This document shows, piece after piece, positions 8,693 to 12,170 of a DNA stretch of 46,627 nt (position 1 is its first letter; each line of letters opens with the position of its first letter). The translations under genes were made by a program, and so were the position numbers. The notes under the pieces were generated by a model. That model was given only the letters and a program-made list of their open reading frames with translations. It did no database searches and was not told the origin of the DNA. The DNA comes from a virus (Duplodnaviria; Heunggongvirae; Uroviricota; Caudoviricetes), in the IMG/VR virus record IMGVR_UViG_2541047706_000005, positions 1-46,627 of that record; one strand, given 5' to 3'.

Positions 8693-9076
8693 TCATCTTG
8701 CTGTCAGTTGTTTGGATTTCCGGTATCCTGCCGCGTAAAGAGCTACGTTCGGAAGACATACACCAGTTTCTGGTTGCTTATGTCCAAACTCATTCGCGTA
8801 CACAATGGCCGCTCGCTCCAGATTGCGTCTGTATTCTTTCTGTTGCCAGATCACGTCCTGTGCCATGAACTTAATTGGCTTAGCGTCTTCTATGCGCTCA
8901 GGCGTTTCGTGAGTACCTTTAGCCTGAATCTGCGCTCTGCTTAGAGTAGGGCGTTGTAATACTTCTGAACTTATTGCTTCTTCGCGGGCCAGTACGCCGT
9001 TAGCTAATGCCTTTGCCTTTAAACGCTCACGACGACGAGAACGTGAATTGCCTTTGAACTGAGTTCTGCGTGTCAT
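8693..9076 (-). CDS. N-type transcription antiterminator, P22 gene-24-like
   Basis: Arg-rich N-terminal motif (RRTQFKGNSRSRRRERLKAKA) and C-terminus LPNVALYAAGYRKSKQLTAR resembling P22 gp24; first gene after pL. Confidence 0.8.
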   Translation of the reverse strand: MTRRTQFKGNSRSRRRERLKAKALANGVLAREEAISSEVLQRPTLSRAQIQAKGTHETPERIEDAKPIKFMAQDVIWQQKEYRRNLERAAIVYANEFGHKQPETGVCLPNVALYAAGYRKSKQLTAR

Positions 9077-9241
9077 ATAGACCTCCTGATGAACTTTGGT
9101 GGTGTGGTAGGTGGGAGACCCATTTCGACCTGTTTCGGCCTACTTCAATTCGGCAATAGTCCCGCAGGCCTCGCCGCTTTACGTGCGACATATTCCCGTC
9201 CATGAACCCTTCACCACACCCCAAAGTTCACTTTGGTTATT

Positions 9242-9256
9242 GCGCTTTGTCAGCGC
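9242..9256 (-). promoter_or_regulatory. nutL boxB-like hairpin (P22 type)
   Basis: Minus-strand GCGCTGACAAAGCGC between pL and N; approximate coordinates. Confidence 0.55.
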
Positions 9257-9324
9257 CGTAGATTCATATTCGAATCGTTGTATATTCACCGCCCTGGTGA
9301 GTAGTGCGTCCTGCTGATGTGTTT

Positions 9325-9387
9325 AGTATCACCGCCAGTGGTATTTATGTCAACACCGCCAGAGATAATTTATCACCGCAGATGGTT
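9325..9387 (-). promoter_or_regulatory. Lambda oL1-oL2-oL3 operators with pL
   Basis: Three 17-bp operators matching lambda OL (tatcaccgccagtggta, caacaccgccagagata, tatcaccgcagatggtt); TTGACA/GATACT on minus strand. Confidence 0.9.
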
Positions 9388-9540
9388 ATCTGTATGTTTT
9401 TTATATAGATTTATTTTTTTGCAGGGGTGTGTGGCTTGGGAGGTGATCGAGAGATCTGAATTGCGATGTTTAGTGAGTTGTATCTATTAATTTTCAAATA
9501 AATACAATTGGTTATGTGTTTTGGGGCGAACGTGAGGCAA

Positions 9541-9565
9541 AGAAAACCCGGCACTGAGGCCGGGT
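9541..9565 (-). terminator. Rho-independent terminator ending the cI operon (tImm-like)
   Basis: Minus-strand stem cccggc/gccggg plus U-tract just after the small ORF stop; approximate coordinates. Confidence 0.6.
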
Positions 9566-9574
9566 GGGGTTTTG

Positions 9575-9745
9575 TTATTGGTGCATTTGGCAGACTGTAG
9601 TATCAGGTCCATAAGCCAAAGTAAAAACAGGCTTGTTGATCAATCCTTTGTTCTTTAATGATTGAATCATTTTACCTTGCTCGCTAACTTTTTGCTTGCT
9701 AAGTATTTCTGCCACTTGCTGTGTCAGTGATTTGTCTTTGCTCAT
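9575..9745 (-). CDS. Small ORF (about 56 aa) coupled to the upstream peptidase-like gene
   Basis: Hand-translated MSKDKSLTQQVAEILSKQK...; its ATG directly abuts the TAA of the 300-aa gene; below track cut-off. Confidence 0.4.
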   Translation of the reverse strand: MSKDKSLTQQVAEILSKQKVSEQGKMIQSLKNKGLINKPVFTLAYGPDTTVCQMHQ

Positions 9746-10648
9746 TTATGACTCACTTTGTTCTGAGAAGGGGAATGAAGACAGAACAAGAACCTGTCGA
9801 TTTGTCTTATACATGTATTCATTAATGACGTTGTGCAGATTTTTTAACGCCATGCTAAAATCTTTGTCGTATGTAAAGTCTTCTACTTTAATTCTTAAGT
9901 CATTGATAAGAGTATTTATTCCTATCGTTCTTCCGTGAGAATGCCACTTTCCGTTGTCACTAAGAGCGGTAGCGATCATTTTAGCTCTTGCTTCTTTTTC
10001 CCTCTTGGAAACTAGCTTTCCTCGTTTTGTGTTACCTTGATGAACCGTCCACTCTCTGAATTTATACTCTACAAGCCACTTCTTAAGCAAGTCTATTGAT
10101 AGCTCTCTGGCTTGCTCGTATCTCCTTAAGTGCGCAAGATCTAACTGACTAAGCATCATTAGTTCAGCTTGGGTAATGGTTCCTTCTCTGGATTTAGTAA
10201 TCATTTCTTCAACTTTATCAAGGTATCCCAAAGCAGGAACCCATTTACCGTCAGAGGATTGCACTTGAGGGTCAATGGGGCCTAATGAAGAAGCATAGTT
10301 CATGTAAATTTTATCTCCAGACATACACCATATTGTGCCTGCCGACATGGCCATATCTGGAATGATAAAATATACCTCTTGATAGAAATGCCTTGTAATT
10401 TCTACCATTTTTTCCACAGACTCAACAGAGCCACCATTTGTATTGAGTATAATAACTAGAAATCTATTGGTACGACTGTTAGCCATCTCCCCAATAGCCT
10501 CAAGTTTTGGTTGGTAAACTTCTTTTGACCATGGAAAGATACCACCGTAGTACGCTATGACGTCGCAGCTTGGGAAAAAGTTATTTTTAAATTGCTCTAA
10601 CTGCCAAGAAATGTATGTTTCTAGTGTTGAATCAAGATTTTGGCTCAT
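9746..10648 (-). CDS. ClpP-fold serine-peptidase-like protein (S49/SDH-type) in the rexAB position
   Basis: ILNTNGGSVES and PDMAMSAGTIWCMSGDKIYMNYASSLGPIDPQ align by eye with ClpP INSPGG and QAASMGA...PNSRVMIHQP blocks; directly downstream of cI on the same strand. Confidence 0.7.
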   Translation of the reverse strand: MSQNLDSTLETYISWQLEQFKNNFFPSCDVIAYYGGIFPWSKEVYQPKLEAIGEMANSRTNRFLVIILNTNGGSVESVEKMVEITRHFYQEVYFIIPDMAMSAGTIWCMSGDKIYMNYASSLGPIDPQVQSSDGKWVPALGYLDKVEEMITKSREGTITQAELMMLSQLDLAHLRRYEQARELSIDLLKKWLVEYKFREWTVHQGNTKRGKLVSKREKEARAKMIATALSDNGKWHSHGRTIGINTLINDLRIKVEDFTYDKDFSMALKNLHNVINEYMYKTNRQVLVLSSFPFSEQSES

Positions 10649-10720
10649 GTGATACCTTGCTATATCAACAATTTACAATAACATGTTGCACTATCGGTTT
10701 TTTATTAATCACAATTGGAA

Positions 10721-11434
10721 TTACCCAAACGTCTCTTCAGGCCACTGACTAGCGATAACTTTCCCCACAACGGAACAACTCTCATTGCATGGGATCATTG
10801 GATATTGCGGGTTTAGTGGTTGTAGGAACACCTGACCGCTATCCCTGATCAGTTTCTTGAAGGTAAACTCGTCACCACCAAGTCTGGCTATGCAGAAATC
10901 ACCTGGCTCAACAGCCTGCTCAGGGTCAACCAGAATTAACATCCCGTCAGGAAAACTAGGTTTGGATCCTGTTGGCGCGGTCATGGAATTACCTTCAACC
11001 TCAAGCCAGAATGCAGAATCACTGGCTTTTTTGGTTGTGCTTACCCATCTCTCCGCATCACCTTTGGTAAAGGTTCTAAGCTCAGGCGAGAACATCCCGG
11101 CCTGAACATGAGAAAAAACAGGGTACTCATACTCACTTCTAAGTGACGGCTGCATACTAACCGCTTCATACATCTCGTAGATTTCTCTGGCGATTGAAGG
11201 GCTAAATTCTTCAACGCTAACGTTGAGAATTTTTGCAAGCAATGCGGCGTTATAAGCATTTAATGCATTGATGCCATTAAATAAAGCACCAACGCCTGAC
11301 TGTCCCATCCCCATCTTGTCTGCGACAGATTCCTGGGATAAGCCAAGTTCATTTTTCTTTTTTTCATAAATAGCTTTAAGGCGACGTGCGTCCTCAAGCT
11401 GCTCTTGTGTTAATGGTTTCTTTTTTGCGCTCAT
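10721..11434 (-). CDS. cI: Lambda CI repressor
   Basis: 237-aa translation recognised as lambda CI ([53 protein letters not shown]...). Confidence 0.98.
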
Positions 11435-11444
11435 ACGTTAAATC

Positions 11445-11509
11445 TATCACCGCAAGGGATAAATATCTAACACCGTGCGTGTTGACTATTTTACCTCTAG
11501 CGGTGATAA
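11445..11509. promoter_or_regulatory. Lambda oR3-oR2-oR1 operators with divergent pRM and pR
   Basis: tatcaccgcaagggata, taacaccgtgcgtgttg and tacctctagcggtgata between cI and cro; TTGACT...GATAAT pR. Confidence 0.9.
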
Positions 11510-11534
11510 TGGTTGCATGTACTAAGGAGGTTGT

Positions 11535-11735
11535 ATGGAACAACGCATAACCCTGAAAGATTATGCAATGCGCTTTGGGCAAACCAAGACAGCTAAAGAT
11601 CTCGGTGTATATCAAAGCGCGATCAACAAGGCCATTCATGCAGGCCGAAATATTTTTTTAACTATAAACGCTGATGGAAGCGTTTATGCGGAAGAGGTAA
11701 AGCCCTTTCCAAGTAACAAAAAAACAACTGCATAA
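11535..11735 (+). CDS. cro: Lambda Cro
   Basis: 66-aa [42 protein letters not shown]... recognised as lambda Cro. Confidence 0.97.
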
Positions 11736-11773
11736 GTAACACCGCTATTTTCACAATGGACATTCGTCCTACG

Positions 11774-11788
11774 TCGCTGACAAAGCGA
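11774..11788 (+). promoter_or_regulatory. nutR boxB-like hairpin (P22 type)
   Basis: tcgctgacaaagcga between cro and cII; same loop as the nutL candidate. Confidence 0.5.
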
Positions 11789-11873
11789 GTCCCAATATAT
11801 CTGACCAACTAAGGCCATATGCGTTTCCACGCATACCTTTCAACTAACTATTCACTATTGGAAATATTAAGAA

Positions 11874-12170
11874 ATGACACAAGCAAGTTACAGCAAGCCA
11901 ACACAGCGCGACGTTGATCGCGCAGAAACAGATTTACTCATCAACCTGTCAACGCTTACACAGCGCGGTCTGGCAAAGATGATTGGCTGTCATGAATCGA
12001 AGATAAGCAGAACGGACTGGAGATTTATTGCTTCGGTCTTGTGTGCTTTCGGAATGGCATCAGACATCAGTCCGATTAGCAGGGCTTTTAAGTATGCGCT
12101 TGATGGACTCACCAATAAAAAACGCCCGGCGGCAACCGAGCGTTCTGAACAAATCCAGATGGAATTCTGA
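11874..12170 (+). CDS. cII: CII-like transcriptional activator (chimeric: non-lambda N-terminus, lambda C-terminus)
   Basis: C-terminal ...LTNKKRPAATERSEQIQMEF matches lambda CII as remembered; N-terminal two thirds differ. Confidence 0.8.
   Translation: MTQASYSKPTQRDVDRAETDLLINLSTLTQRGLAKMIGCHESKISRTDWRFIASVLCAFGMASDISPISRAFKYALDGLTNKKRPAATERSEQIQMEF

Follow-up and report, generated by a model that had tools for sequence, protein, structure and literature searches.

The closest described relatives of the control region studied here are the lambdoid phages HK97, mEp234 and HK106 (NC_002167, EF120460, EF120461), which share the order N, nutL, lambda oL, a variable slot, lambda cI/oR/cro, nutR and cII. 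The mEp234 record EF120460, deposited as an 'immunity region', annotates N, boxA and boxB of nutL, pL, oL1-3, the terminator Timm, the cargo of the variable slot, cI and pRM, together with oR1-3, pR, cro, boxA and boxB of nutR, pRE, the CII site and cII. The record belongs to Degnan et al., a paper cited in PMC11893012; PMC8585504, citing Degnan et al. 2007, describes the cI-N interval as a hotspot of mosaic diversity. Here we analyzed the corresponding interval in a virus of the Caudoviricetes (IMG/VR record IMGVR_UViG_2541047706_000005; the whole stretch of 46,627 nucleotides is referred to as the window). The interval, positions 8693-12170, runs from the stop codon of the leftward N gene to the stop codon of the rightward cII gene. 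We conclude, with a probability of about 0.93, that it is the core of immunity and early regulation in an HK97-like lambdoid Escherichia coli prophage, and that HK97, mEp234 and HK106 already provide sequenced and annotated examples of this arrangement.

In a megablast search of the interval against 50,697 phage records, the best matches were HK97, mEp234 and HK106, at 97.6% identity over all but a 1.15-kb insert, a two-gene cargo, encoding a protease and a small partner, that fills the variable slot. By blastn, HK97 matches 8642-9562 at 98.0% and 10721-12210 at 97.2%, and mEp234 and HK106 match likewise; nucleotide identity of 97-98% with these phages, in the same order, covers N, nutL, pL/oL1-3, t_imm, cI, oR1-3, cro, nutR, pRE and cII. 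The elements annotated in EF120460 each map onto the window at the expected offset. Blastn matches to lambda are confined to 9286-9565, 10725-11749 and 12108-12396, and the P22 match comprises only 66 nt of N, at 74%. The core with its cargo is found in bacterial sequences. The E. coli scaffold KE699144.1 (GCA_000456525.1), located by look-up of the exact protease sequence, is 100% identical over 3746-16648 (12.9 kb), and CP068807.1 carries the whole core (8642-12210), cargo included, contiguously at 97.1%. Among 5,426 complete RefSeq E. coli genomes, at least 24 have both flanks with a different cargo, and none has N, the cargo and cI together in one place.

The initial annotation of this region had described a mosaic core with a recombination junction inside cII; the corresponding rival reading is a new mosaic, in which P22, lambda and other phages recombined recently and the junction inside cII is private. 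The sequence features behind that reading are real and far beyond chance. The breakpoints are likewise real when the comparison is with lambda alone, for which similarity is limited to the three segments given above, and the C-terminus of cII is unlike that of HK97, mEp234 and mEpX1. However, HK97, mEp234, HK106 and many E. coli genomes carry the same order and sequence, CP068807.1 and KE699144.1 carry them with the cargo, P27 and EC416 share the cII combination, and nucleotide similarity to P22 does not extend beyond the short stretch in N. The new-mosaic reading was to be abandoned if alignments showed a single well-known phage type, and this is what they show, because HK97, mEp234 and HK106 carry the same order at 97-98% nucleotide identity. 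We consider a new mosaic very improbable. The alignments identify a region that is mosaic relative to lambda and P22 and yet is of a single well-known phage type.

Families of open reading frames (ORFs) were assigned with Pfam and phage protein families with PHROG, defence models were those of PADLOC-DB v2, promoters and terminators were located by sequence scan, and hairpins were identified by folding. The N gene (8693..9076, - strand; Pfam N_peptide, 2e-15) encodes a 127-aa antiterminator of H-19B/HK97 type that is identical to HK97 N at 125 of 127 residues. N of this type is present at 95% identity or more in 86 phage records, including Stx phages 86, P27 and Min27, whose N proteins are 98-99% identical to that of the window. 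The protein carries the arginine-rich motif (ARM) 12-RSRRRER-18 and the residues R3, S11, R15 and R18, matching H-19B N in PMC3526286, where these four residues were defined by mutation. The initial annotation had assigned N a P22 gp24-type C-terminus, and this holds: the C-terminal 29 residues are identical to the gp24 C-terminus at 21 positions (72%), the two proteins fall in one Pfam family (N_peptide), and the ARM, GNSRSRRRER, resembles the P22 sequence GNAKTRRHER through the shared pattern GN..[ST]RR.ER. The resemblance is not full-length, however: gp24 has 100 aa vs. 127 aa for N, only residues 100-127 of N align with it apart from the short ARM resemblance, and the central region has no detectable similarity. 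A P22 origin of N and the nut sites was considered and rejected, P22 sharing 66 nt at 74% with the N gene vs. 98% for HK97. N is of the HK97/Stx-phage type and is not a P22 import. The gene directly downstream of N (8008-8691, - strand) is for a protein with nucleotide modification associated domain 5 (Nmad5; Pfam 5e-72; phrog_1965, a family annotated as of unknown function); HK97 has an unrelated gene at this position.

The sequence GCTGACAAAGC occurs exactly twice in the 46.6-kb window, at 9244-9254 (-) and 11776-11786 (+), vs. a chance expectation of 0.03. Each copy lies in the sense of its own transcript, the first on the - strand downstream of pL and the second on the + strand, in the pR transcript downstream of cro, and both fold as a 5-bp stem with a GACAA pentaloop, confirming the P22-type loop that had been proposed for the two boxB candidates. 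The nutL boxB, GCGCTGACAAAGCGC (9242..9256, - strand), is identical to the annotated nutL boxB of mEp234, and its 15 nt match the nutL boxB of P22 exactly; its fold, a 5-bp stem with GACAA loop, has an energy of -8.5 kcal/mol (z -3.5). The nutL boxA, CGCACTACT (9300..9308, - strand), is identical to the site annotated in mEp234 (EF120460). The nutR site (11743..11788, + strand; boxA plus boxB, hairpin by folding) comprises boxA CGCTATTTT (11743-11751, + strand), with one mismatch to the mEp234 annotation, and boxB TCGCTGACAAAGCGA (11774-11788, + strand), identical to the annotated nutR boxB of mEp234. We note that CGCTATTTT is more distant than CGCTCTTTT, the nutR boxA of HK97 and mEp234, from the lambda consensus CGCTCTTA. 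Lambda similarity by blastn ends at 11749, within nutR, and the segment from nutR through the 5' end of cII is ~95% identical in Stx phages.

The window has the non-lambda 127-aa N and the GACAA-loop boxB in both nut sites that mark the HK97/mEp234 type. P22 shares the 15-nt nutL boxB, the GACAA loop at both nut sites, the similar ARM and the C-terminal residues of N, but differs in the stem of the nutR boxB, and its immunity region (c2, cro, operators) is unrelated. H-19B and the Stx phages (PMC3526286, PMC4499122) share the N ARM with its defined residues and the type of nutR, but have other repressors and operators (15-bp operators in P27), whereas in the window N and the nut sites flank a lambda-specificity switch.

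The switch itself is that of lambda, as the initial annotation had stated for oL, oR, cI and cro. The promoter pL (9325..9387, - strand; scan match TTGACA-17-GATACT) contains oL1 at 9327-9343, oL2 at 9351-9367 and oL3 at 9371-9387. The rightward operator region (11441..11510) contains oR3 at 11445-11461, oR2 at 11468-11484 and oR1 at 11492-11508, with pRM (-), placed from the mEp234 annotation, and pR (+), located by scan. Five of the six operators (oL1, oL2, oL3, oR2 and oR3) are identical to those of lambda; the sixth, oR1, TACCTCTAGCGGTGATA, has G8 changed to A, and HK97 and mEp234 carry the same change. The cI repressor (10721..11434, - strand; Pfam HTH_3 and Peptidase_S24), of lambda immunity type, is identical at 237/237 residues to those of HK97 and mEp234 and at 235/237 to that of lambda (T3A, K71N). 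Cro (11535..11735, + strand; Pfam Cro, 3e-35) is identical at 66/66 residues to those of HK97 and mEp234 and at 65/66 to that of lambda (K39N). Differences from the lambda switch are thus limited to oR1 G8A, Cro K39N and CI T3A/K71N. The cI gene, cro, oL1-3 and oR1-3 all point to lambda-specificity immunity, and a lysogen would be expected, from the identity of proteins and operators, to be homo-immune with lambda. The terminator t_imm (9546..9565, - strand; terminator scan and fold), which is the Timm annotated in mEp234, forms the left edge of the variable cI-N slot. Besides cI, cro and the operators, the window shares with lambda t_imm, the cII C-terminus (last 20 residues), oop and the 5' portion of O. 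It differs from lambda in N and both nut sites, which show no relation in nucleotide sequence, and in residues 1-77 of cII, where identity is ~30%; moreover, the protease pair, a helicase loader and a Q21-type Q stand where lambda has rexA/rexB, P and its own Q.

The cII gene (11874..12170, + strand; Pfam Phage_CII, 2.8e-35, residues 1-92) encodes 98 residues, of which residues 1-77 are of HK97 type (75/77 identical to HK97) and residues 78-98 are of lambda type. Its Phage_CII domain and the TTGC-N6-TTGC site at pRE place the protein in the lambda CII family; pRE (11864..11896, - strand) contains the CII site TTGCTGTAACTTGC at 11883-11896, which overlaps the start of cII and lies at the position of the CII site and pRE annotated in mEp234. 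The initial annotation had described a cII that shares only its C-terminal third with lambda. The lambda-like C-terminus is present, but it comprises 20-21 of the 98 residues, one fifth of the protein and not a third: the last 20 residues, LTNKKRPAATERSEQIQMEF, are identical to lambda, and the remainder is ~30% identical and still homologous. Over the last 21 residues, HK97, mEp234 and mEpX1 agree with the window at only 12-13. In the nucleotide alignment of this end of the gene, the window goes with HK97 and mEp234 up to ~12097 and with lambda from there through the start of O; the onset of lambda-type sequence, at about 12098-12108, falls at the 3' end of oop. An oop-like antisense RNA (12112..12228, - strand), with a sigma-70-like promoter pO at 12200-12228 and a strong terminator at 12119-12146 (promoter and terminator scan plus fold), overlaps the last ~55 nt of cII. 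An Rfam search of 7000-21500 returned no family for nut, boxB or oop, the only hits being isrK, C4, a1b1 targets and two tRNAs.

The C-terminal 21 residues of cII occur in two forms. The lambda form is found in this window, in Stx phage P27 and in the EC416 prophage, and the HK97 form is found in HK97, mEp234, mEpX1 and the LHM10-1 prophage. On this comparison, the two forms combine freely with the same N-terminal part. Since both occur across several phages and prophages, the cII 'chimera' is, by alignment, a common combination of alleles, joined at a module boundary that recurs, and not a private junction; the recombination junction inside cII that the initial annotation had proposed is also present in P27 and in the EC416 prophage. 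As a source of the C-terminus, mEpX1 was rejected: its cII ends in the HK97 form, although its O and loader match those of the window.

Certain points weigh against the assignment to an HK97-like core. A megablast search of the cargo against deposited phage genomes matched only the 86-nt t_imm flank, so that the full combination is found only in bacterial genomes; the nutR boxA differs by one base from that of HK97 and mEp234; immunity specificity, the action of N at its nut sites and transcription from pRM into the cargo are deduced from identity to studied phages; and the literature on HK97, mEp234 and HK106 (Juhala et al. 2000, Degnan et al. 2007) entered the analysis through GenBank annotations and citing papers.

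Because the components are near-identical to ones that have been studied, a working scheme for the core can be proposed. CI would bind the lambda-type operators oL1-3 and oR1-3 and repress pL and pR, lysogeny would be maintained from pRM, and Cro would oppose it. Upon induction or infection, N, of the type studied experimentally in H-19B, would be made from pL, its ARM would bind the GACAA-loop boxB hairpins of the nutL and nutR transcripts, and N together with host Nus factors would render RNA polymerase resistant to termination. CII would activate pRE at the TTGC-N6-TTGC site that overlaps its own start codon, and the oop-type antisense RNA would overlap the 3' end of cII. The sharp change within cII, from ~30% to 100% lambda identity, would then represent the left edge of an oop/O homology block, of which two allelic versions would circulate among lambdoid phages. 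The protease, presumed cytoplasmic, and its 56-aa partner would probably be co-transcribed with cI in the lysogen.

One part of the interval that sets it apart from HK97, mEp234 and HK106 is the cargo, which the initial annotation did not mention. The two-gene cargo occupies 9566-10720 (1.15 kb), between t_imm and cI: the sequence ceases to resemble lambda, HK97 and mEp234 exactly at the t_imm hairpin (9565/9566) and resembles them again from the cI stop codon (10721) onward. The cI-t_imm cargo is gp48/gp49 in HK97 and hicAB plus one ORF in mEp234. No homologues of rexA or rexB were found between cI and t_imm, and there is no lambda nucleotide similarity across 9566-10724. The first gene (9746..10648, - strand) encodes a 300-aa SDH-family serine protease of ClpP fold (Pfam SDH_protease, PF01972; phrog_11747), and the second (9575..9745, - strand; phrog_28875), whose ATG directly follows the protease stop codon, encodes a partner of 56 aa. 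Both PHROG families are annotated as of unknown function.

The protease scores 41 bits with Pfam SDH_protease, vs. a cut-off of 31.3, and 54.5 with the NCBIfam equivalog NF047768, vs. a cut-off of 250; because the latter score is far below the cut-off, we assign the protein to a divergent SDH subfamily. An AlphaFold2 model (pLDDT 89.7) matches, by Foldseek, the folds of SppA, ClpP and the 1510-N stomatin-specific protease, and a sequence search of the PDB gave only marginal matches to SppA and ClpP (E 0.6-0.8). Ser102 is invariant and aligns with the serine of the SppA MAASGG motif, which we take to be the SppA nucleophile; Ser102 is hence the candidate nucleophile here. The protein also has weak similarity to phage head-maturation proteases. 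The partner gave a sub-threshold match to Arg_repressor (16.9 bits vs. a cut-off of 27). The protease, the partner and the Nmad5 protein had no match in PADLOC-DB v2.

The pair is rare in E. coli and widespread outside it. It is present in 17-20 of the 5,426 E. coli genomes, and in all but one of the inspected prophages the protease gene immediately follows the repressor gene; in the exception, E. coli 2015C-3121, a 53-aa ORF separates the two. The repressors are of different types: four are from E. coli, that of Klebsiella aerogenes is a Rac-like CI, and that of Edwardsiella, with the pair between cI and N, is of the S24 family; the upstream neighbour of the Martelella alba homologue is likewise an S24 repressor. 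The Nmad5 gene recurs in other prophages with the pair. At E<=1e-3 the protease family numbers over 4,300 members, and homologues ~50% identical to the window protease occur in Proteobacteria, Bacteroidota, Acidobacteriota, Planctomycetota and other phyla. A homologous ORF of 55-90 aa lies 10-20 nt downstream of the protease gene in 60 of 80 loci across phyla, and the C-terminal motif of the partner is Y-x-L-P-x-x-D-T-I-G in most phyla and FTLAYGP in enterobacteria. The upstream neighbours of 69 distant homologues have no common family, and we therefore regard linkage to a repressor as a trait of proteobacterial prophages and not of the family as a whole.

What the pair does can be suggested only tentatively. 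The cI-N slot houses the defence genes rexAB and bstA (PMC8585504), and because the slot is shared with these genes, exclusion expressed in the lysogen is plausible. The pair may form an anti-phage or exclusion system not previously described. Lambdoid and Rac-like prophages would express it from the rexAB slot along with the repressor, and the two-gene module would have spread horizontally across many bacterial phyla; to this proposal we give less than even odds. In its specific form, and at similar odds, the pair would be a lysogen-expressed superinfection-exclusion or abortive-infection module in which the protease, held in check by the 56-aa partner or targeted by it, acts on the infection of another phage. 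The position exactly between the cI stop codon and t_imm is consistent with this form of the proposal, as is the occurrence of the pair after at least six repressor types in prophages of E. coli, Klebsiella, Edwardsiella and Martelella. So are the confidently predicted ClpP/SppA fold with the invariant Ser102 and the weak resemblance to head-maturation proteases. The pair is, furthermore, kept together in 60 of 80 loci while the genes around it are unrelated, which is typical of mobile self-contained modules. A place in the slot does not by itself establish a function, however, the same slot holding hicAB in mEp234 and unrelated ORFs in HK97, and many copies outside the Enterobacterales lie among housekeeping genes and without phage context. 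PADLOC-DB v2, as stated, gave no match, and a literature search found no study of the function of the SDH protease family or of a role for it in phage defence. Relative to rexAB of lambda and bstA of BTP1, the cargo has the same slot, orientation and end terminator, but it has no sequence or fold relation to either, being a soluble ClpP-fold protease with a 56-aa protein, and is a candidate defence system only.

The data agree about as well with a role that is toxin-antitoxin-like or purely physiological as with defence. The pair could be an addiction module resembling a toxin-antitoxin system, or a host-physiology gene with no anti-phage role, carried as a passive moron; that specific reading we judge unlikely, though by no means negligible. 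The presence of two genes with a small second gene, the variable neighbourhoods, the wide horizontal spread and the hicAB genes of mEp234 in the same slot would all fit it. In most type II toxin-antitoxin pairs, however, the small partner is upstream and DNA-binding, whereas here the partner is downstream and its match to a DNA-binding domain (Arg_repressor) is sub-threshold, and ~50% identity across phyla suggests a conserved enzymatic target.

Beyond cII, the early region continues with modules of other types. The replication module (12203..13944, + strand; Pfam Phage_rep_O and IstB_IS21) comprises O at 12203-13048 and a DnaC-like loader at 13033-13944. O is identical to mEpX1 gp46 at 277/281 residues, and the loader is identical at 303/303 to mEpX1 gp47, a protein with the annotation DnaC-like loader; HK97-type phages instead have a P22-like O and a DnaB helicase. 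The loader, encoded directly after O, passes Pfam IstB_IS21 at 67.8 bits, above the cut-off, and scores 164.7 with the NCBIfam DnaC equivalog, vs. a cut-off of 357; because this score is under the cut-off, it is not host DnaC itself. The proposal of a DnaC-like loader in place of P is borne out by this AAA+ DnaC/IstB-like gene.

The combination of a Q82-type Q with lambda S and R had also been proposed, and only its second half holds. S (105/107 residues), R (155/158 residues) and ninH/ninI (97% nucleotide identity) are lambda-like. The late antiterminator Q, which lies outside the interval (18926..19444, + strand; Pfam Phage_antitermQ), is of phage 21/Sf6 type: it is identical to phage 21 Q at 134/162 residues (83%, E=2e-100) and 98.3% identical at the nucleotide level to Sf6 gene 59. 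Assignment to Q82 was rejected, BLASTP against the X92588 Q giving E=3; the phage 82 record has only weak similarity, in the orf96/rus region at 17416-17966. Between the Q21-type Q and the lambda-type S lie tRNA-Asn (GTT) and tRNA-Thr (TGT), at 19508-19663 (+ strand), as in Sf6 and several Salmonella phages.

At 15672-16604 (+ strand), Rfam identifies isrK, the C4 antisense RNA and a1/b1 targets just upstream of an ORF6N/P22_AR_C antirepressor gene (15924-16604), which is followed by a second antirepressor, Rha/ANT, at 16673-17401; this part of the nin region looks like a second, antisense-RNA-controlled immunity (immI-like) module. The structural half, 23301-45885, has ~95% nucleotide identity to Klebsiella phage vB_Kpn_Chronis at 80% query cover, including a baseplate-J-like protein, and has no match to HK97 or lambda heads and tails. 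By these matches, the window combines a lambdoid early region of E. coli with a virion module known in Klebsiella phages. In the records 'Lambdavirus PDP110P1' and 'Wanchaivirus PDP110P2', the end of the window (42073-46627) and its start (1331-21110) are matched at 98% and are contiguous, with ~300 nt between them. The int gene is at 1419-2489, and the window is probably the complete genome of a prophage or phage, cut open at an arbitrary position.

As a finding about mosaicism, the arrangement originally described adds nothing new, the HK97/mEp234-type control region being a textbook case of module exchange among lambdoid phages. What it offers in practice is a correct annotation, with immunity of lambda type, N of H-19B type, Q of Q21 type and a replication module of mEpX1 type. 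If the cargo pair blocks superinfecting phages, it would be a protease-based addition to the few repressor-linked prophage defences, rexAB and bstA, and a two-gene module found in thousands of genomes would gain a function.

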